DNA from: a virus | IMG/VR virus record: IMGVR_UViG_3300046779_002349 | Coordinates: 64,001-128,000 of that record | DNA length: 64,000 nt | Reading direction: 5' to 3' (one strand) | In this document: one piece after another, positions 15,176 through 61,279 of the stretch | How positions within the stretch are numbered: position 1 is the first letter of the stretch | Layout of the letters: every line of letters begins with the position of its first letter | Position numbers and translations under genes: made by a program | Notes under the pieces: model-generated | Told to the model about the DNA's origin: nothing | The model's database searches: none | The model's input: the letters and a program-made list of their open reading frames with translations, nothing else

Positions 15176-16639
15176 TCAGGAAAACCGATTTAGAGCAACA
15201 GCATACGCCAAATCCGTATTTACTTCATTATTATCGCATAAATTACTTCCTTTGGCAATATTAAACATTGCATTTAATTGATATGCTAGATAAGTAGTTG
15301 CGTACTTATTTAACTTCTCTGACTTCGGCTCTGAAAACTCTCTATTTTTTGTACTACCTGCTTTGATAATAGTTACTACTACTCTCTTCTTAACGGGCTC
15401 TACTTTGCAGGAAAACTTTTCTGAAAGTTTTTCCATGACTTGATCAATTGCATCAGTACTACATGGGTCGGCGATTTCGCAAAGAGAATCACCTGGATCA
15501 AACATACTAATCAATTCTTCCAGTTCGTCGTTGCTACCTTGTTTTTGTAAGGTGGTGTAACCAAACGCAAGTTGTTCTTTTCCGCGAGCAACTTCCGAAT
15601 CCGCCTGGAGTTCCGGTATTGATTTTTCTGTGACATAACTTAGGAAAGAATAATAAGGAAGAATAGAAGCTGACTTTTTAAGTTTATAGAACAGTGTACC
15701 AGGATTGAGTTTGCTAATTTTAACAATCTCTTCTGGGGTTGCTTCATAACCTACTACGTTAGGCAATACGTTATTAATGTAATCTACTTCTGGACTAGAC
15801 GTATTAGTACTAGCACACTTATTAAAGTAACCTTCATGGGAAACCAACTTATTTAGCACGCCTTGATACTTAGTAGGAAACTCATTTATAGAAACTCCTT
15901 CGTATTCGGCCCAAGCTACACCTGGAATGATAATATTTGTAGAAGCTGCTTTTTTCAATTCGTCATCTCCAAATTTGTATTCAAGATAATGTGCAATACG
16001 GTCAGCAGGTCTTTTAACTCGAGAGATGTCAAAGAAGTTAGGTTCTCTGTTATAGGCGAAAGCATACTTTTCAAACTCAGGCATATACTTGCCCATATTG
16101 TTTTTCAAGTGATCACAATACTGGCTGAGATTCTTCGCTTTATTTCCGCAGATAGAACATTCGTCATTAGGTAATTTGCAGGACATAGAGAAGCTGAGTT
16201 CTGAACCTTGCTTGGCTAGTTCGTACTCTTCTTCTGCTTTTCTTTTATTACCCCAAACAAGAAGCTCTACTCTATCTGTCTTAGGGTGGTATGCACTAGC
16301 TTTAACCAAACCAATACCTTCGGTTTCTTGACAACGGTTTCTATGTTCTCTAAAGAAGCAACCGTTTTTTACGAATGTTGGATGGAACTTTTCTAATGAA
16401 TCGCTAGGGAACGCATCTCCATTTCTGTTGGGTAGATATGTAGGGTGTCCGCCCATAGCAATAAGATGGATCATAAAGTGATCATCGTCTGGAGTGTGCT
16501 GTGCTATAAGCTCTTTTGAGAAAGCTTCACTGGCGGAAGATTTTACCAACTGATTTGGATTAATAAACTGACTCATATAGCCAGCCGCTTGTCTCAAATC
16601 ATAGGCATCGTCTTGATATATAATTTTACTCAGGGACAT
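15176..16639 (-). CDS. prohead maturation protease
   Basis: NRNGDAF, FREH (candidate His), SFSMSC (candidate Ser), CSICG..CDH Zn-ribbon insert and FFDISRV.RPAD; upstream of scaffold and capsid. Confidence 0.65.
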   Translation of the reverse strand: MSLSKIIYQDDAYDLRQAAGYMSQFINPNQLVKSSASEAFSKELIAQHTPDDDHFMIHLIAMGGHPTYLPNRNGDAFPSDSLEKFHPTFVKNGCFFREHRNRCQETEGIGLVKASAYHPKTDRVELLVWGNKRKAEEEYELAKQGSELSFSMSCKLPNDECSICGNKAKNLSQYCDHLKNNMGKYMPEFEKYAFAYNREPNFFDISRVKRPADRIAHYLEYKFGDDELKKAASTNIIIPGVAWAEYEGVSINEFPTKYQGVLNKLVSHEGYFNKCASTNTSSPEVDYINNVLPNVVGYEATPEEIVKISKLNPGTLFYKLKKSASILPYYSFLSYVTEKSIPELQADSEVARGKEQLAFGYTTLQKQGSNDELEELISMFDPGDSLCEIADPCSTDAIDQVMEKLSEKFSCKVEPVKKRVVVTIIKAGSTKNREFSEPKSEKLNKYATTYLAYQLNAMFNIAKGSNLCDNNEVNTDLAYAVALNRFS

Positions 16640-17537: not shown

Positions 17538-19214
17538 TTAACTATCGTAAATAGATTTTTGATTTGCCATTACGTCTTTGACTGTTTGGGCTCTATCCTT
17601 TTCGATGCCTGCCATTTGTCCATAACTATGAGGAGTAATTCCCTCATACTGCAGTGCCTCTCTGAGAGCAAATTTTGCAACATTCTTATCCTGCATCATC
17701 TTCGGATTAATTTGAGCCAGGGAATTATAAATACTCACTACGGTTCTCGGAGAATGGGCTGCAATAATTGGATCTTGCATAAGCTCGTGAATCGTGGCGG
17801 CTGTTGCTATGGAAGTCACTGTTTTGTCTACTGATGCATTAACGTATCCTCTGTCCCCCTTAGATGGTAGGGTTAGTAGCTTCTTAGCTCTATTCTCGTA
17901 AGTATCATCAATGAAAGACTTTAGCTGACTAGCAAGATCCTTGCTAGTTGCTCCCGCCGCGCTCTGCACTGGTTTAGATGCATTTTGAGCTCTTTGGTTT
18001 TCCATTAAATATGCCACTATCGATGCTGGGCTACCGGAAGGTAATTGTGTTGATTCCGTGTAATCCTCTACTGAAGCTGCTGGTTCCTCTGGAGACTCCG
18101 TAGGTGGTTCCTCGGAGGGACTTCCTGGTTCTTCGCTAGGTGTTTCTACAGGTGCTTCTGTAGTTGCTTCTGTATAATCTTCTGCAGGTGCTTCTGTATA
18201 CTCTTCTGCAGGTGCTTCTGCAGGTGCTTCTGTAGGTTCTGTGGGTGGCTCCTCTGCGGGGGGTGTTAAGCGTGTGTTTGTTTTTTCTTCCTTAGGAGAA
18301 TCTTTTTCTGCATCAACATTTTCGGAGTCTGGTTCCTTTTTCTTTTCTTTTTTAGATTTAGAGGACATCCCTGCCCACTGATTTAGTTGTGCGAGTTCAT
18401 CGTCGGTAATGTTTTTCCCACCAAGTCCAGCAATTCCAGAAGCTGCTCTCTTTTCGATTTCTTTGAGTTCTACTAAAATGTCTATCTTTTCTTGTATGTC
18501 TTCTACTTTGTCTAGAAAACCAGTTCTATCCATTACCACTTTAGAGCTAGCCAACTTTTCAAATTCTACAGTAGGATTGAAGCCGAAATAATTTACCGCT
18601 TTTCTGCAGAGGAACTCGATAGCATCTTTGTTTTGATTTTCCGATGCAAGTGAATCTGCGGCTAGCTTAGTGAAGAAAGCATTAGGTTCAATATTTTTCA
18701 AATAGAGTTGTTTATTAATATCATTCGCTTGCTTCATTAAGTCCTGTGTGAGCTCATGAATAATAGTAGGAACTTCTGAGATAAAGTTTAATTGATCCTG
18801 TTTAGCAGCATCTTTTACGTTTCTATGAATTGCATAAGCTAACTCGTGTTCTTGTGGGGCTGCTGCCGATTTTTCTAAAGTTTCTACATTGAAAAAATTT
18901 GGAAGATAACCTCCATTTTTTACATTACTTGATGCGGATTTTTCGATGGTCTTCTTAATGGGTGTGCTGTGATCGACATACTCGGCCATCAACTCATTGA
19001 TGTCTAGAAGAGTGTAGGAATCTCCACGGTTTGCGCTTTTTTCAAGATGCGACAAAGTTTTTGCGCTGTTGTACACTTGGCCTAGTCTCTCCAATTCGGC
19101 GGGAGAAAGGTTGTTTTCACTCGCGTATTTAATCAATGTCCCTTTAGGATCTTGGGACTCATTGATAGAAGGAGCAAGCCTCTCAATTAATTTTATAGCT
19201 GTAAAGTGTTCCAT
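17538..19214 (-). CDS. putative head core/structural protein
   Basis: At least 8 K-x-A motifs, a Pro/Glu-rich linker, located in the head module. Confidence 0.5.
   Translation of the reverse strand: MEHFTAIKLIERLAPSINESQDPKGTLIKYASENNLSPAELERLGQVYNSAKTLSHLEKSANRGDSYTLLDINELMAEYVDHSTPIKKTIEKSASSNVKNGGYLPNFFNVETLEKSAAAPQEHELAYAIHRNVKDAAKQDQLNFISEVPTIIHELTQDLMKQANDINKQLYLKNIEPNAFFTKLAADSLASENQNKDAIEFLCRKAVNYFGFNPTVEFEKLASSKVVMDRTGFLDKVEDIQEKIDILVELKEIEKRAASGIAGLGGKNITDDELAQLNQWAGMSSKSKKEKKKEPDSENVDAEKDSPKEEKTNTRLTPPAEEPPTEPTEAPAEAPAEEYTEAPAEDYTEATTEAPVETPSEEPGSPSEEPPTESPEEPAASVEDYTESTQLPSGSPASIVAYLMENQRAQNASKPVQSAAGATSKDLASQLKSFIDDTYENRAKKLLTLPSKGDRGYVNASVDKTVTSIATAATIHELMQDPIIAAHSPRTVVSIYNSLAQINPKMMQDKNVAKFALREALQYEGITPHSYGQMAGIEKDRAQTVKDVMANQKSIYDS
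18053..18262 (-). repeat. coding Pro/Glu/Ala/Thr tandem repeats
   Basis: Repeated caggtgcttctg units encoding EAPAE / E(E/D)YTE / EEPP. Confidence 0.8.
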
Positions 19215-26389: not shown

Positions 26390-26419
26390 ATTATATAACA
26401 CAAGCGGAGCTATTTTTGC
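26390..26419 (-). promoter_or_regulatory. phage promoter motif copy 1
   Basis: GCAAAAATAG-ctcc-GCTTGTGTTATATAAT, conserved at three loci. Confidence 0.75.
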
Positions 26420-26721
26420 TTTGTTTTAAATAGCGCACTAGCATCCTTCTCCAGGATAGATAAAAAATGTTTTGTATCTGGATGCTTCAAGTGCATCCTC
26501 ATCAGTTGTTCTGGAGACGGAGGTGGATTTATTTCCATCAATTGCGCTTTCCTTTTAGCTTCTCTAGCCTTTGCACCAGCTCTGCCCATTCTAGACAACT
26601 CTTCTTTGTTATTGGAGAAGATTGCTTTGATCAATTCTTGTGACTTCCCTTTAAATGGATCGAACTTAGGAGCTGCTGATTTAATTAACATCCTTGGTAT
26701 TAAAACAAAAATAGGTTTCAT
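26410..26721 (-). CDS. leader-tagged putative head cargo protein
   Basis: MKPIFVLIPRMLIKSA leader. Confidence 0.55.
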   Translation of the reverse strand: MKPIFVLIPRMLIKSAAPKFDPFKGKSQELIKAIFSNNKEELSRMGRAGAKAREAKRKAQLMEINPPPSPEQLMRMHLKHPDTKHFLSILEKDASALFKTKQK

Positions 26722-27803
26722 TTTAAGTAATTTTTTATTTTGTCCAAAAAGCTTATCTCTTCGGAATTCGACTGCGGTTTCTCTGGGGATATAAGAGGTT
26801 TATTTTTTTCTTTCAAGTAGGCATTAAGTTCTAAGCCGCCATAAGTGAGCCCTCCTAATCCTGCTGAGGTTAAAGGTATATCCCGTTTTGCTAACAGGTT
26901 TCTATTTTTATCTGCCTCTTTTAACGCGCCTACAGCTTGTTCTAGTTCAGTTCTGTATTGTGGACTTCCGATTACTGATTTAACTCCGCGTAAATTACCT
27001 TCTCTGTCTAATAAATTGTTTCTAAAACCCCTCATGGTATCAGGGTCTGCTTTTATTTCTCCGTAATTTAATGCTTTTAAATAACTCGATAGCAAATCTA
27101 TGTCTGATCCTTCTACTTTTGTTAACGGTCCTATATTCGCCGAATTTGTCATATATGCAAATTGCTTAGTAGGGCCTTCTGTAACGAGCTGTATACCTCT
27201 ACTACTAGAGGTTGGGTCTGCAAAATAGATACCTCCTTTAAAATCTTTTTCTCTCAGTACTTTATTATCGGGGCTGTAATGTCTAAACGGATCTCCGGTC
27301 TGATAATTTGTATAATTGCTTCTGTCAAATTGTGCTGCTCGCTCTGCATCTGTAAGTTTATCTTTCAAATTACTAAACAAAGAAACATTTCCTAAATCTT
27401 CTTTAGCTCCTAAATTCTTATGAATTAGATTTGAGTACAAGTTTTTATTTTTAACGAACTTATTACCAGCGGGAAGCAAGCTAACTAACTTGTCAAAGAA
27501 AGACGCTGCTTTTTTAAACTTTTTCAAAGGAGGTCCCATGCCTGGTCCTTCTACTTCTGATTTACCTGGAGGTTTTCCATCATAACGAGTTCTTACCCAT
27601 TTTCCAGATTCCATTAATCTTTTTTCGGAATCGCTGGGAGTTCTCACTGCTACGAGTTTATCACCACCTCTCTTTTTTTTAGCTCTAGCTTCTTCTTCGG
27701 AGCGTGCAGCAATACCTGTGTTTCTACCTTCGAAGTAATACAGTTTGTATTCCTCGCTGGCTTGTTTAATAAGGATAGTTGGAATTATTGAGTGTAGGTT
27801 CAT
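26718..27803 (-). CDS. leader-tagged putative head cargo protein (two modules)
   Basis: MNLHSIIPTILIKQAS leader; internal KKAAS; C-terminal hydrophobic segment. Confidence 0.55.
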   Translation of the reverse strand: MNLHSIIPTILIKQASEEYKLYYFEGRNTGIAARSEEEARAKKKRGGDKLVAVRTPSDSEKRLMESGKWVRTRYDGKPPGKSEVEGPGMGPPLKKFKKAASFFDKLVSLLPAGNKFVKNKNLYSNLIHKNLGAKEDLGNVSLFSNLKDKLTDAERAAQFDRSNYTNYQTGDPFRHYSPDNKVLREKDFKGGIYFADPTSSSRGIQLVTEGPTKQFAYMTNSANIGPLTKVEGSDIDLLSSYLKALNYGEIKADPDTMRGFRNNLLDREGNLRGVKSVIGSPQYRTELEQAVGALKEADKNRNLLAKRDIPLTSAGLGGLTYGGLELNAYLKEKNKPLISPEKPQSNSEEISFLDKIKNYLK

Positions 27804-28781
27804 TTAATAGTTTTGCTTATTATTGTTAAACCACCTTTCTGCTGACCTAAGACCTTTTTCTGTTAAAAAAGTATTAGGTAGTTTAGATGCCCCTGCATTA
27901 TGTAAGGCATCAGAAAGTTCATCTCCAGGTCGGTGTCTCCATAAGAATAATGGGTTAGCAGGTATAACTTTTCTCGTTAAAATTTTATCGGAGTCTGTCG
28001 GATGTAGCAAATACTGTGCGTCAGCACCATGTCCGCTCTCAGCTATTTTTGCGTTTAATTTTGGGCGAACTAATGCTACAGCCGGAATGTCTCCATATCC
28101 ATACGCTCCTCCTGCATACCTCGCTGTTACTGCATCATCAAACAAGCCTCTTATTTGGTTGTTAGTAGGACTAGTCCATAAACTTCCATTACCTCCATCC
28201 GAAGCAATACTGCCGTATCCTTTTCCTTCTAGTACACGTTTCATTTTATACAAACTTCCAAAACTTTGAAGGTTGTTTTCGTCTAAAGCATCTACGGCTC
28301 TCCTTTTTTGTAAAGATTGTCCTACTACAGAAGCTCCTCCATATTTATGCTGTTTTATAAACTTTAGTTGATTTTTTACATCTTGTGGTGAATCAGCAAG
28401 ATGTAATAATTTCTTAATAAGTTTTGTTCTGTTTCCATAGTCAGCGTGTACCCCATTTCTAGGACCCTGAATCCCTCCATAATTTTTTACATTATTGCTA
28501 ATCGCTTTGATAACTTCGGGAGTCCTCAATTGGGGGTATACCCTAGCTGCATGTATGGCCCTGAGAGTTTTGTCCATACCAAAAGTAGGTACTTGCGGTA
28601 TAACGCCGCCTACAGTGGTATCGACAGCAGCCCTAGATTTAGTTATACCTTCCAGCATTTTTAAAGCGTTAATCGGTTTTAAATGTGGAAGCATTTTTTC
28701 CCATTTTCTGGACGCAACCTTAACCAACCCAACACTGGCTTGTTTAATAAACTGCTTAGGAGCTAAAAAAAATAATTTCAT
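27804..28781 (-). CDS. leader-tagged putative head cargo protein
   Basis: MKLFFLAPKQFIKQAS..VKVAS leader; basic composition. Confidence 0.55.
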   Translation of the reverse strand: MKLFFLAPKQFIKQASVGLVKVASRKWEKMLPHLKPINALKMLEGITKSRAAVDTTVGGVIPQVPTFGMDKTLRAIHAARVYPQLRTPEVIKAISNNVKNYGGIQGPRNGVHADYGNRTKLIKKLLHLADSPQDVKNQLKFIKQHKYGGASVVGQSLQKRRAVDALDENNLQSFGSLYKMKRVLEGKGYGSIASDGGNGSLWTSPTNNQIRGLFDDAVTARYAGGAYGYGDIPAVALVRPKLNAKIAESGHGADAQYLLHPTDSDKILTRKVIPANPLFLWRHRPGDELSDALHNAGASKLPNTFLTEKGLRSAERWFNNNKQNY

Positions 28782-30199
28782 TTCAAAGGCATTACGTAAT
28801 TTGAACTAAGATGTTCTAAGGCAGATAAAGTAGCTCTAATATTATCTTCCATATGAGGTTGTTTTGCAATCAAATCTTCGGCTCTTTGTCTAATAGGATC
28901 CAAGCCTTTTATTTTTACAGCACCTGTAGCTTCACGGATAGCTTTCGCCTTATTCCCTGTTCCTTTAGTTGCGTGAAACTGAGTTCGGAGTTCGTCCAGA
29001 GCCGTAGTAGACCCAAGTATACGATTTTTTATTTCCTTTCCTCCCAATTTCTCTGACATCCGTAGCGGTAAATAAATGTTGCGATTGTACTTAGTTAAAT
29101 CTTTACTTCTCAAAGGTATTTGTACTACGTGACCTAGCTCATGCCTGCCCGAGAGAGAATTAGCCGGAGCATAGATTTCATTAAGATCCTTTCTTGCTCT
29201 TGCTTTATCTGTGAACCCGAGCTTTGGATCTTTCCATGATTGTTTACCAATCCATTTTCTGTATAACCAATTATCTAGGCTAGCAAAGAAAGAGCTTTTT
29301 TGAGGAGCTTTTCTCTTCGGTATGACCCTGCGTCCTTCTCTAATTTGTGCTAGGCTTGCGTCTCCAATTAATAACTTTTTTAACGGATTTATAGCATTGG
29401 TATCTACATTCCTAATACCTGCCAGCAAAGTGTCGTCAGAATTATACACTTCGCTTGCTGGACTGTTTCTCGCACTGTTTATTCTGGCATCTAATGTTTT
29501 CTGAATTTGCCTCAGTTCTCCTAATTGTTTTCCATACTCGTCATTAGCTCGTAATCCTTTATTTAGATTTCCGTGCATGGGTAGTTTAGCGGATTGTTCT
29601 GCTGTTCCTCTTAATATGCCGCCTCTTAATAGCTTAGTAAATTTATTAGCAGATTTCTTAATGAGCTTGCGTTCTCCATTGATAAGATTAAAGCGTTTAT
29701 CTGGTGTGGCTAACTTACCTTTAGAATTAGTTATAAAGCCACTCAGAGGAGACTTTAATGGCTTAGTTATAGTCACATACTTCCTATCCTCTTTAACGCC
29801 TTCTACGGGGCTTTTAGAGGCTTTTAGATCTTCTTCAGTACCATTGATGGTTGAGGATTTTGTGAAGTATTTTGGGAGTATGAAAGCAGACTTTTTTTCC
29901 ATACTCTTCTCAATTGCGTACTCTTGTTTGTAAGCATCTTCAGGAGAATCATGAGTACCTAATTTTCTTTTGCCATCTTTAGTCCACAAAATCCATTTAC
30001 CTGACTTTGGATCTTTTTCGATACGTGCTGATTTTTTAAGCTCGTCTCTAACCGTGGTATTACCTTTTTTGTGTTTCGGCGAGTAAGGGCAATTTGTGCA
30101 GCCAGAACCACAACAGGGTCTTTTCATAAGATCCTCTGCCGTTGGTTCTGATTTAGCTTGTTTTACAATTTCTTGTAGTTTAGCTAGGGAAAACTTCAT
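28778..30199 (-). CDS. modular putative polyprotein (Cys-cluster module plus HExxH module)
   Basis: RPCCGSGCTNCPY (DUF5522-like), KLGTHDS..A..QE.AI module and RHELGH; modules separated by KQA/KKSA. Confidence 0.6.
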   Translation of the reverse strand: MKFSLAKLQEIVKQAKSEPTAEDLMKRPCCGSGCTNCPYSPKHKKGNTTVRDELKKSARIEKDPKSGKWILWTKDGKRKLGTHDSPEDAYKQEYAIEKSMEKKSAFILPKYFTKSSTINGTEEDLKASKSPVEGVKEDRKYVTITKPLKSPLSGFITNSKGKLATPDKRFNLINGERKLIKKSANKFTKLLRGGILRGTAEQSAKLPMHGNLNKGLRANDEYGKQLGELRQIQKTLDARINSARNSPASEVYNSDDTLLAGIRNVDTNAINPLKKLLIGDASLAQIREGRRVIPKRKAPQKSSFFASLDNWLYRKWIGKQSWKDPKLGFTDKARARKDLNEIYAPANSLSGRHELGHVVQIPLRSKDLTKYNRNIYLPLRMSEKLGGKEIKNRILGSTTALDELRTQFHATKGTGNKAKAIREATGAVKIKGLDPIRQRAEDLIAKQPHMEDNIRATLSALEHLSSNYVMPLK

Positions 30200-30205
30200 T
30201 TGGAT

Positions 30206-30234
30206 ATTATAGCTAAAAAAAGAAATGTAATCAA
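30206..30234 (-). promoter_or_regulatory. sigma70-like promoter, leaderless geometry
   Basis: TTGATT-N17-TATAAT-N6-ATG. Confidence 0.7.
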
Positions 30235-30256
30235 TTGTTTACTTGCTTAAGCTATT

Positions 30257-32773
30257 TTATCTTTTTAGGGTCTCCATCAATTTACTAATACCGTCACTTA
30301 CTTTCGTGTCATTTATTTTATTCGCAGTAGGAAACAAACTAGAAAGTGATGCTGCTGACAACCCTAGTCCGGCGAGACCCTTGACCCCGCCTACTAAATT
30401 TTTAAGTCTTTTTTGACGGGAAAGTACAGGTAACAGAGCTTTTGTCATATTTGCCTTGGCATAATTATTAGCATGAAGCTGCCCTGCTCCTCTACGTAAT
30501 GCGGCAGAATAGTCGTCTTTATTAAGGCGTTCTAAGATATTAACTAATTGTCTTGGGGAGTTAATGGCTTTTACTCCTTGCTGGCGTAAGGCAAACTCTC
30601 TGTTGCCGCTATTCCACTCATCTAGCTTTACCATTTTGTGCTCGTCTAAAAATTCAGGATCTATATCTACTCCAAGGCGTTTAAGTCTGTCGAATATTCT
30701 TTTTTCTTTATCTTTTAATCTACTCCAATTAGTTTGAACACCCAGTACTGACTTGGAGCTTAGTGCTTCTAATGCCCCAGAAGTTCCTGTGGAAATATCG
30801 TGAAAGTCCGCTATATCAGGTAGCCCTATGTAAAGATCCTGAGGTAATTTTTCGAATAATAGTAGATTTTTATCTTTTTTAAGAGACCTAGAGATAGGAT
30901 TATTTTCATGATTTTTACCTAACATTCCTGCTATCTGGTATTTATCCGTTAACCCAGCTCTTCTTAATTCTCTTCGTAACTCCCTTATTCTGGAGCCCAC
31001 GTAATCGCCCCGACCAGACCCTGTTACAAAAATTAATTTTTTGTCTCCTAAATTTCTTAACAGTTGTTTCTGGTGATCGTTTAGATTTGGATTACGAAGA
31101 GCCTCATTAATTACATCCGTTTTAGTTTTTGTTTGAGAATCCTGCAAAATAGAAGTAGCTTTTTCTGTCAGTGTTGGCATTCCTCTATTGGACACATTTA
31201 TTCTATTAAATTGTCTATTAAAGTCTTGTTCCTTTCCGCCTTGTTTTAAGTTTCGCAGTAGGATATCTTCCGGTCCCCAGGTTATGAAGTTATCTTTAAT
31301 CCCTACTTTTTGGGCTAAACGTCTCAAAGGACCATCTATGTTTAATTTATATCCAAAATGCGGAGAACCTACCGTACCCACGTCTGTCATGTAACCTACA
31401 AAACCGCCAGGTGCCACTCTTGCCCGAGAATCTCTTCTCAATTGTCCTGGAGAATCTCCTTTGTCCCAATCCCATGGGCTAGTGGGGCCCATTCCTGCGT
31501 CAGCGAAAACATCGAATTTTTTTCTATATGATCGTTTGTCGTAATTATTAGAAGAATCTCTATATGCATCAACTATGTCAATATCTGCAAACTGTGGATT
31601 TTCTTTTTTAATGTCGATTAAGACATCTCGCATCGCTTGCCCTGGGTTTTTATGTCCATCGCCATGTCTTGCCAATTCGGACCAAGATACTCCGACTCTA
31701 AGTGGTCTGACTAAATCGTTTACCCCAGACCCTAAGCTCATTGCTCCGGCAGCTACTCCGGCAACTGCTGGTAATTCCTCTGTTACATTTGATTTTTTCT
31801 CTAATGTATCTTTTATTTCTTTTCCTCCAAATAACAAGCCCATTCCTGCAGAAGTATTCCTTGCAAAGGTTGTTGCTTTATTTAAATTAGGTATAATTAC
31901 GTCCGCTGCGTTTTCGTAATTCTGCGCATTTCCTCCACCAGAAGTTAATGGGCTAGAACCAGCGTATTTATTTCGCAAATCTCTAAAGTATTTACGCGCA
32001 TTAAGTGCATCCTCCTTCATACCGCGTCTTTGGAGATCCGTTAAGGCTTGTGCTATTTTGTCAGAAGGGTACTCTTTAATTATCTTCTCTGCTTCAGGAG
32101 AAACGTGCTTGTACAGATCTCCGTATAGGTTATACTTGTACAAGTCTTCTCTATCGGCAGTTTTAAACTTTCTATAATGATCTAATGTGTATTTAGCCGG
32201 AGGTTCTACATGTGCATCATCCCATGTTTTTTGCCATTTTTTATTATTGTTAGGGTCTATTCTAAATCTTAACTTTTCCAAGAATCCTACAGGTTCATTT
32301 CTTTTTTCTCTTCCTGCGATATCAAAAGCCTTATCGAGTTTAGTTCTGTATCTATTTTTAAGCAGACTACCTTTCACATACTTATCCAATGTAGTTACTG
32401 GGTTAAATTTATTCTCTTTTAAGGCCTCAAATAAAACGTTTCCATGGAGCCCCCTATAAGGGATTTCCATACCAAGAACTTTTGTTTTAATTAAATCTTG
32501 CCCTCCATCTGCATAAGCTTTAGCTGCGGCTATTCCTTGGGATAATGGAGTTTTTTGTGAAAAAGCTTTTGTTTTAACTGCTTGGTTAAACGCTCTAGTT
32601 TTTTCATGAAGTTTACTTAAATCTAGTTTCGCTTTATGACTAATTCCCGCCAAAGCACCAGAGGCCAAAAGTCCTATTAAATTTGTATAATTTTTGTCTT
32701 TATTCCCTGTTCTGACGTCATTGGACTTTTTTTCAAAGTAAAACCCAGGTAGTATGTAACTTAACTTACGCAT
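30257..32773 (-). CDS. leader-tagged two-module protein with C-terminal GT-B glycosyltransferase (MurG/MGDG-synthase-like)
   Basis: HGDGH, LIFVTGSGRG, GMLGKN and D..I.STG...LEAL motifs; EKKSN before both modules; flanking hydrophobic helices. Confidence 0.55.
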   Translation of the reverse strand: MRKLSYILPGFYFEKKSNDVRTGNKDKNYTNLIGLLASGALAGISHKAKLDLSKLHEKTRAFNQAVKTKAFSQKTPLSQGIAAAKAYADGGQDLIKTKVLGMEIPYRGLHGNVLFEALKENKFNPVTTLDKYVKGSLLKNRYRTKLDKAFDIAGREKRNEPVGFLEKLRFRIDPNNNKKWQKTWDDAHVEPPAKYTLDHYRKFKTADREDLYKYNLYGDLYKHVSPEAEKIIKEYPSDKIAQALTDLQRRGMKEDALNARKYFRDLRNKYAGSSPLTSGGGNAQNYENAADVIIPNLNKATTFARNTSAGMGLLFGGKEIKDTLEKKSNVTEELPAVAGVAAGAMSLGSGVNDLVRPLRVGVSWSELARHGDGHKNPGQAMRDVLIDIKKENPQFADIDIVDAYRDSSNNYDKRSYRKKFDVFADAGMGPTSPWDWDKGDSPGQLRRDSRARVAPGGFVGYMTDVGTVGSPHFGYKLNIDGPLRRLAQKVGIKDNFITWGPEDILLRNLKQGGKEQDFNRQFNRINVSNRGMPTLTEKATSILQDSQTKTKTDVINEALRNPNLNDHQKQLLRNLGDKKLIFVTGSGRGDYVGSRIRELRRELRRAGLTDKYQIAGMLGKNHENNPISRSLKKDKNLLLFEKLPQDLYIGLPDIADFHDISTGTSGALEALSSKSVLGVQTNWSRLKDKEKRIFDRLKRLGVDIDPEFLDEHKMVKLDEWNSGNREFALRQQGVKAINSPRQLVNILERLNKDDYSAALRRGAGQLHANNYAKANMTKALLPVLSRQKRLKNLVGGVKGLAGLGLSAASLSSLFPTANKINDTKVSDGISKLMETLKR

Positions 32774-32786
32774 AAACTAATAGCTC

Positions 32787-32815
32787 ATTATATCAATCCT
32801 AATAAATTAATGCAA
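32787..32815 (-). promoter_or_regulatory. sigma70-like promoter
   Basis: TTGCAT-N17-TATAAT, 13 nt before ATG. Confidence 0.65.
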
Positions 32816-32831
32816 TTGATTAATTTAACCC

Positions 32832-33557
32832 TTACAAATTAAGCATGTCTTTTAACTGCTTTGGTGTGTTAGCTACTTCTGAATTATTAAACCCGCCTTT
32901 ATGCTCTTTCCACTTGTACTCCAACGCTGGTGTTGCTGCTGCAGCCAAGTAAGTAGGAACTCCTATAAATGCTTTCAATGCAGACAACCTGGATCTGCCT
33001 AAGTTTCTAAGCATTTTATAACCTCTTGTCGAAGCGTCTAATTCACTACCCAATACTGTACCAAATCCTAATGTGCCTAGAATCGCTGAATTTGCTGAGT
33101 GTTCTTTATTATTCAGCATAGGAACACCAGTAGACCCTATAAGCCCAGCTAACATGCCTGCCCTATGTGCTTTTGTAATCATCGGGTATTTTCTCATACC
33201 CTCTTTATGTCCTAGTTCATGGGCTAATACTGGAGCTGATTTATCTTTAGGATTAATATTTATTTTCTGCGTATCCGGATAGAAAGCCGAAGCCGTACTT
33301 CTTTCGGAGATAAACTTCTTATCTGTGTTCTTTAAAGTCTCGTATCTAGTCGGATCTTTTTTATAATCTCTGCGGAGTAGTGGGCGCATTACCCCGCTGT
33401 GATAGCCCATGTTTAAGGCTGTTAAGGCCGCATTTGGTCCGAACAGAATTTCTGGTATCCCGTAATCGTTCTCGCCAGGTTTTGCCTTATCAAAATAATC
33501 TAGAACTCCTGATTGTTTGATCAGTACTGTAGGAACTAAACAACCAATAGTTTTCAT
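32832..33557 (-). CDS. leader-tagged membrane zinc metallopeptidase (zincin, YugP-like)
   Basis: VLAHELGH, hydrophobic hairpin, ELDASTRG and PTYLAAA. Confidence 0.7.
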   Translation of the reverse strand: MKTIGCLVPTVLIKQSGVLDYFDKAKPGENDYGIPEILFGPNAALTALNMGYHSGVMRPLLRRDYKKDPTRYETLKNTDKKFISERSTASAFYPDTQKININPKDKSAPVLAHELGHKEGMRKYPMITKAHRAGMLAGLIGSTGVPMLNNKEHSANSAILGTLGFGTVLGSELDASTRGYKMLRNLGRSRLSALKAFIGVPTYLAAAATPALEYKWKEHKGGFNNSEVANTPKQLKDMLNL

Positions 33558-33560
33558 TTA

Positions 33561-34193
33561 TTACTGAAGTTTATTTTGATTCTGCATTTGGTCTGCAATT
33601 TGCATCTGCTTTTCAATCAGATCAGCAACTGTGCTAGGAGCTAAACCTTTATTGTTTCTAAGATAATCCGTAACTATATCTGCTGCAAATCTCTGCTTAT
33701 CTTTAGTAAGTTCAGGAGTAGTGGTGTCGGAACTCCAACCAAGAGGAACTTGAGAAATTTTATCTTGAATCATTTCTCTATCCCCTGCTTTAGGAGATAG
33801 GGAGTAAATAACTTTGTCTCCCACTTTCATTTCTTTACCAGCGGTTTGCTGCGTAATTTTATCCATCGTTTCGTTGGTCAATCTGTTTCTTCTCATTGAG
33901 CCACCAGCATAACCAGCAGCTCCTCCTACTCCTGCACCAATCAAAGCGGCCATCAAAGCTCTTTTAATTTTGGATGTACGAGGTCTAGGAGAGTCGTTTA
34001 GAGAGTCGAATAAAGAAGTACCCAAATACGCACCACCCCCTGCTGCAAGTGCGCCTAGAGCTGCTCCTGCAAGCCCTGTCTGATTAGGGTTGTTTGGTTT
34101 AAAATCTTTTAGTGGAGTATCCATTACAGGGTCTACACTTGTATCGAAAGACTGCTTGATTAAATAAGTTGGAATTACGTTATGTACTTTCAT
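33561..34193 (-). CDS. leader-tagged protein with glycine-zipper helices
   Basis: MKVHNVIPTYLIKQS leader; GLAGAALGALAAGGG and ALIGAGVGGAAG. Confidence 0.55.
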   Translation of the reverse strand: MKVHNVIPTYLIKQSFDTSVDPVMDTPLKDFKPNNPNQTGLAGAALGALAAGGGAYLGTSLFDSLNDSPRPRTSKIKRALMAALIGAGVGGAAGYAGGSMRRNRLTNETMDKITQQTAGKEMKVGDKVIYSLSPKAGDREMIQDKISQVPLGWSSDTTTPELTKDKQRFAADIVTDYLRNNKGLAPSTVADLIEKQMQIADQMQNQNKLQ

Positions 34194-34215
34194 TAAATAA
34201 ATATGCTAATTATTA

Positions 34216-36465
34216 TCAGGGGGTTGCTACGGTACCTTTAACTTTCTCGTTCTTCTTAATCAAATCAAGCACAAGGTCACCCATGGATTTAAACTGAGAT
34301 TTCAATTTATTTTCCAGGATAGGCATGTCATCGGAGCCATAAAGTTTTTCAAAGTCTGCTGGTTTCCAATAGAGCAGGAAAAGAATTCTACCAAAATGGT
34401 CCAATCCTTTTTCTAGGCTAGGCAGGTAGTTTTCAATGAGTGCAGCAGAGTCATAGGTAGTAACAAGAGATCCTACCAGACCATGTTCAAATAGATTCGA
34501 TACTCTGCTTGTACCTGCCATTTGAGCAAGTTCTTCTGGAGATTTATCAAGAATGTCCTGATCTCTAAAACCTTTCTTCTCTGCCTCTTCCGAAAGCATT
34601 CCGTTTTGCACACCTTGGTTCAGATTCATACCATAACCCATATTGAGTACAGGTCTATTCAGTACAGTTCTTTCTGACTCGGCTACATGTGTTTGTTCTG
34701 GATCTGTTACTACGGCTAGAGAGCTATCGTAGTCTTTTTGGAAGTTTGGTCTGTCCGAGAAATATACAGCCGCTTTCTTCTCAAATCCAATATTGGGAAT
34801 AAGATAGAAATCTTTGCTGGAGCGGTTAGAAGCCAGTTTGATCATTCTCTCCGCATCGGTGAAAGAGATATTATAGAAACCAGCTATCTTGGTTTGACCC
34901 ATTAACATGTCGCCTTGAGAAGTGAACAAAGGTTTTTCATTCTCGTATACCTTGCACTCCTCAATCATGTCATCGACTTTGAGCGTAACTTTCTTAACTC
35001 CGCGCTTTTTCAAGTATTTCCACAAGTCTTCCATTTTTACATAATCACAATCAGGACACTCAAATGATTTATAATCCGATTCGTAATCTCTTTTAGTTTC
35101 CGTAAGAGGAAGAAAGATCGTATATTTACTAAAAATAGCTCTAGAGTTATCGCTCACATAATCTGGGCAATCATCTTCTTCGAGATCTTTGTTGATAGCT
35201 ACAGTAAAGTTCTGACCACCTTTGCTGGACTTGGCTTTATAGATATATACGTTATCTTTTTCTTTTACTTTTTCTACTACAGAGAATGGGCAACCAAATA
35301 CTTTTGTGGATGTATTAAACGGCACCACATACCCGCTAGTAGGTGGTAGATCTTTTCCTTCAATGGTGTCTTTGAGTAGTGAATTAAGATACTCTCCTGA
35401 GGTTTCTTTTTCTTTATCTACGCAAGCAACTAGGTTTCCACCACGGCAGTAATCAAGTTTTTTATACGTCTTGTTATAGCACATATCCACACCTGGAGGG
35501 CAGGTCGGAGTTCTGTAGCTAGTAGACCACGGCTCTACTCCGAAGGCTTCTTTTTGCGAGTAACCAAGAATAACATCCACTTCTTCACCAGTGTCAGTAA
35601 GTACTGTATGTTCTCCGGCTTCACTTGCCTCAGAAAAAGCTTCATTAACTTCGTCCATAACGTAGTTGAGCTCGTCTTCTTTGCGCATGTCCCAGAGCTG
35701 GTAGCCTTTTTGCGTGTACTCTTTGAGGTCTTCTTTTGCGAACTTAGTGAAGTCGATATCAAATACGATTTCAATATCTGGATTATTAGTTGGATTAGCT
35801 CTCTTTTCAATTTCTTCGGGGAATAGGGTTTCTTCGTCAATACTAGCAACAGCTTCGGCAAACTCAAAAGATTTTTCAATTGCTCCTGCGATCTTGGACA
35901 TCACAAATTCCGCATCTTTTTGTACAAGTGATTTAAGTCCAGAATCTACTGGAGTAATCGTAGTTTCGATACTATCAAAAGCTTCTTCCCAGGCTGCTTT
36001 CAAGTTGTCGTCAGCAGAAGCTCTTTTAAAAAGATTCTGTGGACTTGCAATAGTGCTTAGACGAGGGTTTTGAATCATTTGATCTGCTTTATCTCGACTC
36101 ATTGCTTCGCCTTCTTTAAGCTCAGTTTTATTAATCAAATGCTCTACCCAAGCTGGATCCAGGGGACGCATCATCTTGAGTTTATGCTCGTACATCATCT
36201 CCGTACCTTTGATGACTCCATTTGCGAAAATAACAGGAACAGAAACAAGGTTTTTCCCAATACGGAAAGCGTACATACCCGCCATTTTGGAGTTATCGTC
36301 ATTGGAGTAAACTACCTCAAATCCAATACGATAAGGATCTTCCATAAGTCTTCCTGCTCTAGCTGCCACTGCATTATAGGAAAGGTCGATAAATGCTTTC
36401 TCTAGATCAGCAGAAGTGTTTGCGGATTTTTTCAGTTGTTCGAAATCTTTAATCCAGTTGTACAT
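34216..36465 (-). CDS. large putative head structural protein
   Basis: Acidic, with about 8 K-x-A motifs; start at the second Met because the first ATG overlaps the -10 box. Confidence 0.5.
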   Translation of the reverse strand: MYNWIKDFEQLKKSANTSADLEKAFIDLSYNAVAARAGRLMEDPYRIGFEVVYSNDDNSKMAGMYAFRIGKNLVSVPVIFANGVIKGTEMMYEHKLKMMRPLDPAWVEHLINKTELKEGEAMSRDKADQMIQNPRLSTIASPQNLFKRASADDNLKAAWEEAFDSIETTITPVDSGLKSLVQKDAEFVMSKIAGAIEKSFEFAEAVASIDEETLFPEEIEKRANPTNNPDIEIVFDIDFTKFAKEDLKEYTQKGYQLWDMRKEDELNYVMDEVNEAFSEASEAGEHTVLTDTGEEVDVILGYSQKEAFGVEPWSTSYRTPTCPPGVDMCYNKTYKKLDYCRGGNLVACVDKEKETSGEYLNSLLKDTIEGKDLPPTSGYVVPFNTSTKVFGCPFSVVEKVKEKDNVYIYKAKSSKGGQNFTVAINKDLEEDDCPDYVSDNSRAIFSKYTIFLPLTETKRDYESDYKSFECPDCDYVKMEDLWKYLKKRGVKKVTLKVDDMIEECKVYENEKPLFTSQGDMLMGQTKIAGFYNISFTDAERMIKLASNRSSKDFYLIPNIGFEKKAAVYFSDRPNFQKDYDSSLAVVTDPEQTHVAESERTVLNRPVLNMGYGMNLNQGVQNGMLSEEAEKKGFRDQDILDKSPEELAQMAGTSRVSNLFEHGLVGSLVTTYDSAALIENYLPSLEKGLDHFGRILFLLYWKPADFEKLYGSDDMPILENKLKSQFKSMGDLVLDLIKKNEKVKGTVATP

Positions 36466-36475
36466 AATTTTATAC

Positions 36476-36504
36476 ATTATACATGAATCAATAGAGAAAA
36501 TCTA
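36476..36504 (-). promoter_or_regulatory. sigma70-like promoter
   Basis: TAGATT-N17-TATAAT directly after a terminator. Confidence 0.55.
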
Positions 36505-36547: not shown

Positions 36548-37105
36548 TCATACTTTTGATAACTTCACCAGCATGATGGTGTTTAAACTCGAAGAAACTA
36601 GTATTGCTGCAAGTAACGCAATAGCCCAATTGAAAGGTTTTTTCTCTGGTGGGAGAATTTTAATCTCTTCATTTGGATTACGCATAGGCTTAGCTAAAAT
36701 AGCCACTTCTTTTTTAGGTTCTGGTTTCTTAGCAATAACTGGTGCGCTACTAACTCTCGTAACAGAAACTCTTTTTAGCCCCTGGTTCCAAGTAAGTCCA
36801 ATTTGCTTTGCTGCGGCTGGAGTAAGATCAATAATACGTCCTTTGATAAACGGACCTCTATCCGTGATCTTTACTACAACTGACTTTCCTGTTTTTAGGC
36901 AGGAGACTTTAACTTTACTTCCTAGAGGTAGTGTTTTATGCGCTGCGGTTAGAGCGTTATCATTAAGTCTAGAACCAGAAGCTGTTCTTGTACCTCCGTT
37001 AGTCTTTACAGAATAAATTGAGGCAACTCCAATCTCACCTGCGGCTAATTTATTTAGGCCTAAGGTAATTAGAAAAGCGATGATAAGTACGATTAGTTGT
37101 CTCAT
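36548..37105 (-). CDS. rlpA: RlpA-like lytic transglycosylase (DPBB) with N- and C-terminal hydrophobic helices
   Basis: [48 protein letters not shown]. Confidence 0.9.
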
Positions 37106-37299: not shown

Positions 37300-37515
37300 T
37301 TATATGGTTATTTTAACTTTTGTGTGATTAACTTTCTTTGGTCTTTCATCTATGAGGGCCCCATTTGAATTTTCGTAGTAGATTACCTTACCATTAGCAT
37401 TGTATTCTGCTTTGCTCCAGTAACCACCTGCTTCTTCGTAGTAGGTTACATTGTCGTTAGCATCCTTAATAACATAAGGAAATTCTGTGATACCATTTTG
37501 CTGTGCTAGAGTCAT
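37300..37515 (-). CDS. MTLAQQ-family repeat protein (short)
   Basis: Constant ends and 21-aa G...YxE...GxWxKxEY units. Confidence 0.8.
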   Translation of the reverse strand: MTLAQQNGITEFPYVIKDANDNVTYYEEAGGYWSKAEYNANGKVIYYENSNGALIDERPKKVNHTKVKITI

Positions 37516-37790
37516 ATAGTTAATTGAACTTTTGTGTGATTAACTTTCTTTGGTCTTTTATCTATGATATCGCCAAATGAATCTTCGAAGTAGATTAAGT
37601 TTTCTTTTTCATCGTATTCTCTTTTGCGCCAGTAACCAAGTGAATTTTTGCAGTAGGTTTCATTACCTCTAGAATTGTATTCTGACTTGTACCAGTAACC
37701 GTCTGCATTCTCGAAGTAAATAATTCTTCCTTTTTCATCCTTAATAATATAAGGAAATTCTGTGATACCATTTTGCTGGGCTAGTGTCAT
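37512..37790 (-). CDS. MTLAQQ-family repeat protein
   Basis: Constant ends and 21-aa units. Confidence 0.8.
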   Translation of the reverse strand: MTLAQQNGITEFPYIIKDEKGRIIYFENADGYWYKSEYNSRGNETYCKNSLGYWRKREYDEKENLIYFEDSFGDIIDKRPKKVNHTKVQLTI

Positions 37791-38065
37791 ATAATTATTT
37801 TAACTTTTAGATGATTAACTTTCTTTGGTCTATTGTCTCGGATATACCCAGATGAATCTTCGAAGTAGATTACATTGTCGTTATAATCATATTCTCTTTT
37901 GCGCCAGTAACCATATGCATTTTCGCAGTATGTTTCCTTACCGCTAGCATCATATTCTACCTTGTACCAGAAACCATCTGCATTTTCGTAGTAAATACTT
38001 CTTCCTTTTTGATCTCGAATAATATAAGGAAATTCTGTGATACCATTTTGCTGTGCTAGAGTCAT
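37787..38065 (-). CDS. MTLAQQ-family repeat protein
   Basis: Constant ends and 21-aa units. Confidence 0.8.
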   Translation of the reverse strand: MTLAQQNGITEFPYIIRDQKGRSIYYENADGFWYKVEYDASGKETYCENAYGYWRKREYDYNDNVIYFEDSSGYIRDNRPKKVNHLKVKIII

Positions 38066-38340
38066 ATAGTTAATTGAACTTTTGTGTGATTAACTTTCTT
38101 TGGTCTTTTATCTATGATATCGCCAAATGAATCTTTATAGTAAATTAACTTTCCTTTTTCGTCATGTTCTCTTTCACTCCAGTAACCAGTTGAATCTTCA
38201 CAATAAGTTACATTGCTGTTGGCGTCATATTCGCTTTTGACCCAGGAACCACTTGGATTTTCTAAGTAAATAATTCTTCCTTTTTGATCTCGAATAATAT
38301 AAGGAAATTCTGTTATATTATTTTGTTGCGCTAGTGTCAT
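38062..38340 (-). CDS. MTLAQQ-family repeat protein
   Basis: Constant ends and 21-aa units. Confidence 0.8.
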   Translation of the reverse strand: MTLAQQNNITEFPYIIRDQKGRIIYLENPSGSWVKSEYDANSNVTYCEDSTGYWSEREHDEKGKLIYYKDSFGDIIDKRPKKVNHTKVQLTI

Positions 38341-38615
38341 ATAGTTATTTTAACTTGTAAATGATTAACTTTCTTTGGTCTTTTGTCTACGATGGTCCCA
38401 TCGTAATCTTCGTAGTAGATTAAGGTTCCTCGTGCATCATATTCTGCTTTGCGCCAAAAACCAGTTGACTCTTCGTAGTATGTTTTCTTACCATTAGAAT
38501 CATATTCTGATTTGAACCAGGAACCACTTGAATCTTCGTAGTAAATACTTCTTCCTTTTTGATCTCGAATAATATAAGGAAATTCTGTAATTCCGTTTTG
38601 CTGGGCTAGTGTCAT
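38337..38615 (-). CDS. MTLAQQ-family repeat protein
   Basis: Constant ends and 21-aa units. Confidence 0.8.
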   Translation of the reverse strand: MTLAQQNGITEFPYIIRDQKGRSIYYEDSSGSWFKSEYDSNGKKTYYEESTGFWRKAEYDARGTLIYYEDYDGTIVDKRPKKVNHLQVKITI

Positions 38616-38827
38616 ATAGTTATTTTAACTTTTGTGCGATTAACTTTCTTTGGTCTTTTATCTATGAGGGTCCCATTTGAATTTTCGTAGTAGATTGCCT
38701 TGCCAGTAGCATTGTATTCTGCTTTGCTCCAGAAACCATATGCATTTTCGTAGTAGGTTTCCTTACCTCTTTCATCCTTAATAATATAAGGAAACTCTGT
38801 AATTCCATTTTGTTGAGCTAGTGTCAT
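38612..38827 (-). CDS. MTLAQQ-family repeat protein (short)
   Basis: Start reassigned to MTLAQQ by paralogy. Confidence 0.8.
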   Translation of the reverse strand: MTLAQQNGITEFPYIIKDERGKETYYENAYGFWSKAEYNATGKAIYYENSNGTLIDKRPKKVNRTKVKITI

Positions 38828-38831
38828 ATGT

Positions 38832-39068
38832 TTAACAGTAAACTTCAACAATAGTGTATTGCTTATTAGTCGTGAGGAGTAATTCTTTAATTGTGTTCAA
38901 AGCTTCGTCTTTAGAATACATTAACGTTCCGGCTGGCCCATCTGGAACAACTAACGTTCCTGCTGGCGCAGCTGGAACGTCGAAAATATCTACCCCTCCA
39001 TGCCAGCGGTAATGAATTTCCATAATTTTATAATATATGTGAATGTTGTCGCTTAGTTTTTTGCTCAT
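38832..39068 (-). CDS. hypothetical protein
   Basis: Co-oriented; internal PAGTL duplication. Confidence 0.5.
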   Translation of the reverse strand: MSKKLSDNIHIYYKIMEIHYRWHGGVDIFDVPAAPAGTLVVPDGPAGTLMYSKDEALNTIKELLLTTNKQYTIVEVYC

Positions 39069-57033: not shown

Positions 57034-57312
57034 TTATAACGTTAATTGAATAACCTCGTGATTCAATTTTCTTTTTCTTTCGCCAATAATAAATCCAGTA
57101 CAATCTTCGTAGTAAACTAGGTTATCATCCGAGTCGAATTCTCTTCTGTACCAAGTCCCCTTTGAGTCTTCGTAGGATACTATGTTGTCTAGCGTGCCAT
57201 ATCTTTTCTTGGTCCAGAATTGATCGTGATTTTCCCAGTAAACTTCTCTGCCTTTTTCATCATTAATAACATAAGGAAATTCTGTAATTCCATTTTGCTG
57301 TGCTAGTGTCAT
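57034..57312 (-). CDS. MTLAQQ-family repeat protein, dispersed seventh copy
   Basis: MTLAQQNGITEFPYVI.D start, same 92-aa length, ends LNHEVIQLTL. Confidence 0.8.
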   Translation of the reverse strand: MTLAQQNGITEFPYVINDEKGREVYWENHDQFWTKKRYGTLDNIVSYEDSKGTWYRREFDSDDNLVYYEDCTGFIIGERKRKLNHEVIQLTL

Positions 57313-57322
57313 GACAGTATTT

Positions 57323-57598
57323 TTAAAATGCTCGTAGGCTGATACCATCGAGAGGGGTTTTAACAAAACTAAATTCATGCCCATTTCGCATTAACTGGTT
57401 AATCATCTGTAATGCTAGGCTTTTAAACTCTGCGCTCGGGATAGAGTATATGGTCAGGTTGTCCCCAAAAGAAATCCCATACGCATCGAAATCATGAACT
57501 CCGTCTCTATTTTCTCCTCCGAATGTAATTGTTGTAGTAGAATTAGCATTCCAATGAAAGGTGTGGGCCTCTTCTTCTTTATCGTAATAGTATTCCAT
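57323..57598 (-). CDS. hypothetical protein
   Basis: 91-aa ORF. Confidence 0.55.
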   Translation of the reverse strand: MEYYYDKEEEAHTFHWNANSTTTITFGGENRDGVHDFDAYGISFGDNLTIYSIPSAEFKSLALQMINQLMRNGHEFSFVKTPLDGISLRAF

Positions 57599-60476: not shown

Positions 60477-61223
60477 TTAACCTTTATACCCTGCTTGCAA
60501 TTGCTGCATCTTCTGCTTGTCTACACGACTCTTAGGATCGAAAGCGGAGCCGTGTTGCTTACGGAAGATTGCGTTAAAATCAGGTGCTGGTTTAGCTGGG
60601 GTTGCTGGTCTGCTGGCAGGCATGGTTGGTGCTTTTCCTGCTGGGGCTGGAGCAGGAGGGCCTACTTGTGCAGGAGGTTGTGGGCTTACTGGAGTAGCTT
60701 TAGGGATTGTGGGGTTAGCTCCGTAATCTTTTCTTACTTTGTCCGCAAAAGCTCGCTGGTTAGTTTTAGCCTGCATAGCTCTCGTATAGGCGGGAGACGC
60801 TTGTTCGGCTGCATTATTTTGTGCATCCATGCGGTTATCGGCGGCGGAGCCTGGCAGTAAAGAACCTAAATAATTAGTAGCCTTGGAGTACGAGTTTGCT
60901 CCACTTTCTAGAGCGTTGTTATACATTTGACCAATGTTATTAAAAATACCACCTACACCAGAAGTTTCTGCATTATATGGGGTTTCAGCGTAACCTGGGG
61001 TCGTACCTGTAATGGGTCCGTGTTGTGCTTCGTACTGTGGTCTTTTACCTGCGGTTGAAATGCGATTAATATACCGCTGGCTTGGTTGAGCTGCTTGTTC
61101 TAGTATGTTGTCTAGATTTTGATCTCCTGTACCTCCTGGAATTTCTGCAGGGGCTGGTACGGATAGTGCCTGTTTTACGATTTCGCTAATTGTGGCGGAT
61201 TTGATTATATTTAGATGTTTCAT
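60477..61223 (-). CDS. Pro/Ala/Gln-rich putative virion protein
   Basis: N-terminal IIKSA..IVKQA; C-terminal F.K.HGS.FDPKS.VD module. Confidence 0.5.
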   Translation of the reverse strand: MKHLNIIKSATISEIVKQALSVPAPAEIPGGTGDQNLDNILEQAAQPSQRYINRISTAGKRPQYEAQHGPITGTTPGYAETPYNAETSGVGGIFNNIGQMYNNALESGANSYSKATNYLGSLLPGSAADNRMDAQNNAAEQASPAYTRAMQAKTNQRAFADKVRKDYGANPTIPKATPVSPQPPAQVGPPAPAPAGKAPTMPASRPATPAKPAPDFNAIFRKQHGSAFDPKSRVDKQKMQQLQAGYKG

Positions 61224-61238
61224 ATTTAAAGTTAACTA

Positions 61239-61267: not shown

Positions 61268-61279
61268 ATTCTTAATTTA

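Follow-up and report, generated by a model that had tools for sequence, protein, structure and literature searches.

A putative leader-tagged head-cargo polyprotein with K-x-A joints in a very divergent tailed phage

The window, i.e., the whole stretch of DNA analysed here, covers 64,000 nucleotides and corresponds to bases 64001-128000 of one 150,179-bp contig (IMG/VR record IMGVR_UViG_3300046779_002349); its source is a very divergent tailed phage, and the minus strand holds nearly all of its genes. The subject of this work is an open reading frame (ORF) of 473 residues at 28778-30199 (-), a chain of four modules and two leaders, which appear to follow one another as leader, Cys module (DUF5522-like), KW module (DUF2188-like), second leader, disordered basic peptide and HExxH module. 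Judging from its sequence and from those of its relatives, this ORF probably encodes a leader-tagged head-cargo polyprotein, which the prohead protease of the phage would cut at joints of the form K-x-A.

The 473-residue ORF, its joints and its relatives

Regarding the joints, an earlier reading made from the sequence alone (the sequence-only reading) had placed KQA/KKSA-type sites between the modules, and five sites of the form Phi-x-K-x-[A/S] are indeed found at those places: IVKQA (residues 11-15), LKKSA (54-58), MEKKSA (100-105), FTKSS (112-116) and LIKKSA (179-184). With the strict pattern [LIVMFY]-x-K-[QKS]-[AS], counting overlaps and taking the background from shuffles that keep the composition, the ORF has 7 matches against 0.56 expected, a number reached by none of 5000 shuffles (0/5000); the whole 150-kb proteome has 61 matches against 26.8 +/- 5.0, and 13 proteins of the genome carry the motif at residues 5-21, against 2.2 expected. 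All five boundary sites are kept in position in every orthologue that holds the boundary concerned (identity 47-67%); a sixth match, IGKQS at 317-321, lies off any boundary, is lost in the orthologues and is probably due to chance.

A sequencing frameshift or a read-through artefact was considered and rejected, as independent orthologues keep the same frame. As for an internal translation start at Met100, looking for a Shine-Dalgarno sequence was uninformative, because no inspected gene of this phage has one: it is absent upstream of 13 gene starts (e.g., 30200-30229), and the upstream regions are A/T-rich. Such an absence would suit a host for which Shine-Dalgarno pairing is dispensable, perhaps a Bacteroidota-like one.

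Table 1. Position of the modules of the 473-residue ORF and of the other features of the window
Feature	Position	Strand	Remarks
Leader 1, residues 1-15, MKFSLAKLQEIVKQA	30155..30199	-	predicted cut after K13-Q-A15; modelled helix 5-16
Cys module, residues 16-58, CCGSGCTNCPY, DUF5522-like	30026..30154	-	ends K56-S-A58
KW module, residues 59-105, GKWILWTKDGKRKLGTHDS...EYAIEKS, three strands and helix	29885..30025	-	ends K103-S-A105
Internal leader, residues 106-116, FILPKYFTKSS	29852..29884	-	ends K114-S-S116
Module 3, residues 117-184, basic, predicted disordered	29648..29851	-	ends K182-S-A184
C-terminal HExxH module, residues 185-473	28781..29647	-	HELGH 353-357 (window 29129-29143)
Major capsid protein, 340 residues	12062..13084	-	26% identity to Arash major capsid protein; FSKKA at residues 29-33
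Scaffold-like acidic Ala-rich protein, 339 residues	14102..15121	-	5-7 motif copies
Head-maturation protease, 487 residues, proposed cutter	15176..16639	-	phrog_18299, E 1e-7
Three leader-bearing cargo genes downstream (103, 361, 325 residues)	26410..28781	-	leaders seen
Four motif-headed genes upstream (838, 241, 210, 753 residues)	30257..36477	-	Pro-type leader in first three

Regarding the leaders, a Pro-type pattern has 8 matches in the genome against 0.55 expected, all of them in window 26410-36477. Six head consecutive genes, where they lie at residues 6-7; the other two are internal, at residue 107 in the 473-residue protein and at residue 559 in the 753-residue neighbour. The segment that had been taken for an internal leader, FILPKYFTKSS, fits this pattern, and it is the N-terminal leader of two relatives, P0004 and P0005 (MLIPFIVPNYFIKSS); a variant of leader 1 with LVKKA is found in P0007-P0011 and P0015. 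A Sec or lipoprotein signal peptide was tried as an explanation of the leaders and rejected, because they have no long hydrophobic core.

Comparison with the relatives shows how the ORF is put together. P0002 keeps the whole architecture at full length, with 67% identity; P0003 has a different leader, and P0004 consists of the last two modules only, its true N-terminus being the internal leader of the 473-residue protein; the Cys module is absent in P0003, P0004 and P0005. An extra module of ~150 residues stands between two K-S-S joints in P0005, P0006 and the metagenome locus L008, and P0013, from the same contig as P0004, has leader, KW module and internal leader followed by an unrelated body of ~640 residues. 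P0007-P0011, P0015 and L007 have the leader, Cys and KW modules in common with the 473-residue protein and differ in their bodies; their C-terminal module is homologous to a separate gene of the window, the 103-residue one at 26410-26721 (E 2e-12 with the module of P0008). In P0032 (1656 residues), a homologue of the HExxH module (residues 823-950) is fused to a homologue of the next window gene, the 325-residue one at 27804-28781 (residues 981-1278; 46% identity, E 1e-74), in the same order as in the window. P0032, a giant polyvalent protein from a metagenome, further has a ligase-like N-terminus (KADG motif, by eye), a part that resembles InPase and, at its C-terminus, a Cys module of DUF5522-like type.

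Altogether, the relatives present at least nine architectures, and in every relative compared the module breakpoint falls at the motif. Searching each module separately, as the sequence-only reading had advised, thus returned stand-alone or reshuffled homologues for each of them, and the fusion of cargo genes that it had proposed is established by this comparison. The protein itself had no match by tblastn in 50,697 phage records, and two scans of viral contigs with this protein or with the A1 query gave no confirmed match.

As for the two small modules, 104 proteins were retrieved when 1.84 billion representatives were searched exhaustively with phmmer: ~80 match the KW module only (residues 53-105), which can sit anywhere along chains of 55-2174 residues, and ~20 match the Cys module only, among them DUF5522-like proteins of 51-98 residues that stand alone. 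A K-x-[AS] directly precedes the KW module in 69/80 copies, with the consensus L-E-K-S/Q-A-V-V-K, and follows it in 59/80; Cys modules are bracketed by K-x-A when they belong to polyproteins, and are not when they stand alone. Within this set, the 64 longer proteins carry the motif 174 times against 62 expected, a count to which ascertainment supplies 1-2 copies per protein.

The Cys module scores 19 bits against PF17653 (DUF5522; cut-off 25), and the related module of P0012 reaches 38 bits; CCGxGCxxCPY also occurs in the stand-alone proteins of 51-98 residues. Its earlier description as a metal-cluster module is plausible in the sense of a DUF5522-like Cys4 site, although here it stays below the family threshold. 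The KW module does not match DUF2188 (PF09954, gathering threshold 22 bits), to which the best relatives score 21.5 and 20.3 bits. InPase (PF18823) is present in 20/35 of the relatives that bear a KW module and in no part of the 473-residue protein; other domains found in such relatives are GNAT, GH108, LysM, an RNA-polymerase domain and a P22-type portal.

Regarding the structure, the AlphaFold model of the whole protein had a mean predicted local distance difference test (pLDDT) of 50.5 and a predicted template modelling score (pTM) of 0.29 on a shallow alignment of 11 sequences, and thus did not show the single compact fold that would have spoken against separate modules; such a poor model fits independent modules weakly. 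The confident parts are the KW module, the only well-modelled small one (pLDDT ~70-79), and the C-terminal helices. Foldseek with this model gave no match at E <= 0.001, a result that, given the poor quality of the model, is not evidence of a new fold. The model leaves residues 105-183 disordered (module 3, pLDDT 25-42), yet they hold the most conserved columns of the family: the invariant or nearly invariant columns of all 11 homologues fall in module 3, whose peptide ITKP.K.P..GF...K...PD.RFN is the most conserved stretch. Module 3 also occurs in P0034 and, behind their own internal leader, in P0007-P0011. The peptide may be a short linear binding motif.

K-x-A in the head proteins and the neighbouring genes

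The head genes of the window include that for the major capsid protein (MCP), which has distant relatives in the MCPs of three Vibrio phages and of Arash, an orphan myovirus that infects Salmonella; homology to the Arash protein starts exactly at K-K-A / K-E-A, behind unrelated N-terminal peptides of 24-28 residues. Across the clade, represented by 80 IMG/VR head loci fetched with the protease, K-x-[AS] stands at the boundary between this variable peptide and the N-arm in 42/42 distinct MCP relatives, and the middle residue is variable. The motif occurs 1555 times in these loci where 546 are expected, with an enrichment of 1.6-4.7-fold in each of them. Within the window, the strict pattern occurs 5 times in the scaffold-like protein (0.31 expected), and a 558-residue protein at 17538-19214 has 4 copies of the motif. 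In Arash, the motif is found in the same way in the MCP gp226 (LVKEA, 25-29), in the scaffold-like gp223 (8 copies) and in the protease gp222 (4 copies).

The protease carries the motif as well. After the catalytic domain, 119 homologues have K230 in 117 cases, A/S231 in 112, A232 in 117 and S233 in 104, and an N-terminal [IV]-K-[SQ]-A-A-S recurs among the homologues, so both flanks of the catalytic domain bear K-x-A. Such flanks match the places at which prohead proteases trim themselves, as in SPN3US gp245 (PMC10052503).

Regarding the identity of this enzyme, its tblastn matches come from Arash-like, Pseudomonas, Rhodococcus, Gordonia and mycobacterial phages and from phage G, and are annotated as prohead proteases. 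By sequence, phmmer found no match in the PDB and BLASTP no similarity to HK97 gp4. The AlphaFold model of residues 40-270, based on an alignment of 43 sequences, has a pLDDT of 86.3; it superposes on varicella-zoster virus protease (1vzv) with Z 10.7 and on T4 gp21 (5jbl) with Z 10.4, at a root-mean-square deviation of 3.2 A over 130 residues. The top 27 structure rows are all herpesvirus or T4 capsid proteases, unrelated folds appearing from Z 5.7 down, and one His (His99) and one Ser (Ser151) are invariant in the family. As modelled, the protease of the window has the assemblin/T4 gp21 fold.

As for the genes around the ORF, Pfam and PHROGs gave nearly no matches for eight neighbour proteins, and the contigs of related phages are metagenome-derived. 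The 753-residue protein (34216-36477, -) is weakly collinear with Arash gp218, a gene upstream of the Arash head genes; it has an N-terminal LKKSA and an internal Pro-type leader, LIPNIGFEKKA, at residues 559-569, and it may be a fusion of two products. The 838-residue neighbour (30257-32773, -) has an orthologue at L008:49-2562 that starts MATELEKLLG, without the Pro-type leader; a leader can therefore be gained or lost on the same cargo.

Four consecutive small Gly/Ala-rich proteins (248, 147, 239 and 222 residues) are encoded at 60477-63110 (-) and are headed by K-x-A, their starts being very short peptides that end in IIKSA/IVKQA, MTKQA, IEKSA and LIKAA; this quartet looks like a second leader-tagged set, distant from the head genes. 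Outside the window, a 410-residue protein at L001:432-1664 (-), with the same coordinates in the genome, has 4-5 copies of the motif and a 353-residue protein at L003:6712-7773 (-), i.e., genome 46712-47773, has 5-6, both counted with a looser pattern, so the K-x-A system reaches beyond the window.

Just upstream of the cargo row, 36548-37105 (-) encodes a DPBB/RlpA-like lytic transglycosylase (PF03330, E 2e-22), with a signal peptide at the N-terminus, by eye, and no K-x-A leader. At 37300-38851 (-) there are six paralogous genes in tandem, of 71-92 residues, that all begin MTLAQQNGITEFPY; the same start recurs within a seventh ORF at 57034-57384 (-), 19 kb from the array.

Proposed processing and its alternatives

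In the proposed mechanism, the ORF would have formed by in-frame fusion of formerly separate leader-tagged genes. Short N-terminal leaders would address proteins to the assembling prohead, as the capsid-targeting sequence of T4 does, and the prohead protease of assemblin/gp21 fold would cut at K-x-A; this would remove the leaders and free up to four products of ~43, 47, 68 and 289 residues, which would remain associated with the DNA and might be delivered to the host at infection. Because processing would restore the same mature products, fusion or fission of neighbouring cargo genes would cost little, and this low cost would explain the mosaic architectures. The sequence-only reading had also proposed that the fused proteins are released separately during head maturation; of that proposal the fusion stands, and we strongly infer the release, because the same K-x-A is found at the MCP propeptide boundary, on both flanks of the protease and in the scaffold-like protein across the clade.

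Regarding the scissile bond, by analogy with herpesvirus assemblin the cut most likely falls after Ala/Ser, which would make Lys the P3 and Ala the P1 residue; this is favoured because the K-x-A spacing is fixed and the next residue is variable. The sites of pseudorabies virus assemblin are YLQA-T and VQA-S (PMC4498786). A cut after Lys is less likely; it is kept as a reading because HK97 cuts gp5 after Lys, at K103/S104 (PMC10275583), and the HK97 delta domain holds LTKS, EKKS, LIKS and FNKS.

Several points weigh against processing by the prohead protease. Phage G has a homologous protease and a head module without enrichment of the motif, so the K-x-A rule is not family-wide and would apply to a sub-clade only. 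A study of Arash virions (PMC10585845) reported several head proteins at 100% coverage. The low confidence of the whole-protein model is no proof of independent modules, because the alignment held only 11 sequences, and K-[SQ]-A-V-V-K could be no more than a part of the KW domain, within its first strand. Finally, the HExxH module of the ORF itself is the kind of processing enzyme that Iyer et al. propose for polyvalent proteins.

If only the first leader, or nothing at all, were removed, the product would be one multi-domain chain and the internal motifs would be fusion relics or recombination microhomologies. The internal leader clearly goes back to what was once the start of a gene, and the motifs at the junctions could persist simply since recombination happens there. 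Against this stands the conservation of the joints, since all five keep the full motif in orthologues of only 47-67% identity that have lost the off-boundary match at 317-321; moreover, the Cys and KW modules of distant polyproteins are flanked by K-x-A on both sides and the stand-alone, cellular-type DUF5522 proteins are not. Persistence as mere relics is thus judged unlikely.

It is improbable, too, that the joints are cut by a zincin-like metallopeptidase of the cargo itself, either the C-terminal HExxH module or the 241-residue neighbour with HELGH. All orthologues (5/5) keep the HExxH and, further downstream, a Glu (L-x-E-L-R), the structure leads from the Atlas for this module are all zincins, including a DdrB-like cluster (TM 0.24-0.36, with a model that is poor near the motif), and self-processing by a metallopeptidase (MPTase) is what Iyer et al. 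2017 (PMC5512222) propose. The earlier label of a HELGH module is therefore plausible as regards the conserved HExxH, but the module passed no family threshold: neither Pfam, with no match, nor the PDB, where the sequence profile retrieved chance matches only, supports membership in the zincins. The HELGH of the 241-residue neighbour and the HEEGH body of P0006 are not detectably homologous to this module, whose homologues, among the relatives found, are confined to P0002-P0005 and P0032. Many polyproteins bracketed by K-x-A (P0007-P0011, P0015) have no HExxH module, and the motif marks the MCP boundary, the scaffold and the protease flanks in the 80 loci, all classic substrates of prohead proteases.

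A non-proteolytic role of the motif, as a binding or helix-capping element or as a domain edge, with the enrichment coming from Lys/Ala-rich coiled coils, is highly improbable. Scaffold-like proteins do consist of Ala-, Lys- and Glu-rich helices, and K-S-A-V-V-K runs directly into the first strand of the KW domain; yet shuffles that keep the composition still give 2-3-fold fewer matches, and the motif has a fixed position, exactly at the onset of MCP homology and at the end of the protease domain.

Cleavage of the leaders by a host protease has next to no probability: they end in small residues but are presumably unlike the L27 extension, and the phage has its own protease, with conserved flanks that bear the motif. 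The precedent would be Prp, which trims the capsid and scaffold proteins of the S. aureus phage 80alpha (PMC8569155).

Taking processing by the prohead protease as the preferred explanation, a wider claim can be formulated, but only tentatively. An assemblin-fold head protease, shared by a large and mostly uncultured clade of phages of 100-220 kb (> 500 protease homologues, plus the cultured Arash), might follow a clade-wide and previously undescribed K-x-A rule, a punctuation that would leave cargo-gene boundaries nearly neutral and let the genes fuse, split and swap freely; the KW and DUF5522-like mini-modules might then be freed as packaged peptides of ~45 residues or serve as docking units to the protease.

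Comparison with known systems

The internal proteins of T4 are the closest parallel: IPI-III and Alt have a capsid-targeting sequence and are processed by gp21 (PMC9026906, PMC3012670). In both systems, unrelated proteins (cargo packed with the DNA in T4, and putatively so here) bear a common short tag at the N-terminus, and the tag finishes with the cleavage motif, proposed in the case of the window, of the prohead protease; in the window this tag is found on six genes as a leader and in two internal copies, and a protease of gp21/assemblin fold is encoded (Z 10.4 to gp21). The differences regard the motif, which is L/I-x-Glu in T4 and is not what the window carries, since here the tags end in K-[QKS]-[AS], in line with the K-x-A rule proposed from the MCP and protease sites; the leader, which here is a Pro-containing hydrophobic peptide, unlike that of T4; and the organisation of the cargos, which, unlike those of T4, follow one another within a single gene and change partners from phage to phage.

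As for the polyvalent proteins of phages and conjugative elements (PMC5512222), which are multi-domain, mosaic and virion-associated, with frequent HExxH modules, the 473-residue protein resembles them: it combines at least two unrelated domains in mosaic architectures, and it belongs to late/virion genes, in a same-strand row that runs from the gp218-like gene to the block of protease, scaffold and MCP, in which the portal was not identified. InPase, which like the zincin-like MPTase is among the characteristic domains of that class, is what 20/35 of the relatives with a KW module carry. The passages of that work consulted propose self-processing by the MPTase and do not describe a conserved joint motif or a shared leader. 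The window has, instead, a defined K-x-A joint of the same form as the sites in the head protease itself, and single genes in the neighbourhood bear the same leader.

In phiKZ and SPN3US (gp175/gp245, PMC10052503), many head proteins are cut at a short motif, there are multiple propeptide cuts and the C-terminus of the protease is self-cleaved, as would be the case here; however, the motif is A-x-E, and the parts removed are propeptides, not independent shuffled modules. Herpesvirus assemblin and HK97 (PMC4498786, PMC10275583) share the fold class of the protease and have Ala or Lys at P1, but their only substrates are scaffold or delta domains; cargo polyproteins are not among them.

If the cuts are real, K-x-A would be a third substrate rule, with Lys at P3 and Ala at P1, for the capsid-protease fold common to phages and herpesviruses, and one open to immediate testing in Arash, a Salmonella phage in culture. 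In that case, the mature virion proteins of hundreds of uncultured large phages would become readable from sequence, and proteolysis would let phages build and reshuffle arsenals of injected proteins at no cost.

In conclusion, the principle of leaders and of a cargo chain with protease joints is already known from T4 and from the polyvalent proteins. The window differs from them in its putative K-x-A rule, in the Pro-type leader, in having a defined joint of the same form as the sites in the protease itself and in the two bracketed mini-modules; the rule and the mini-modules are what is new.

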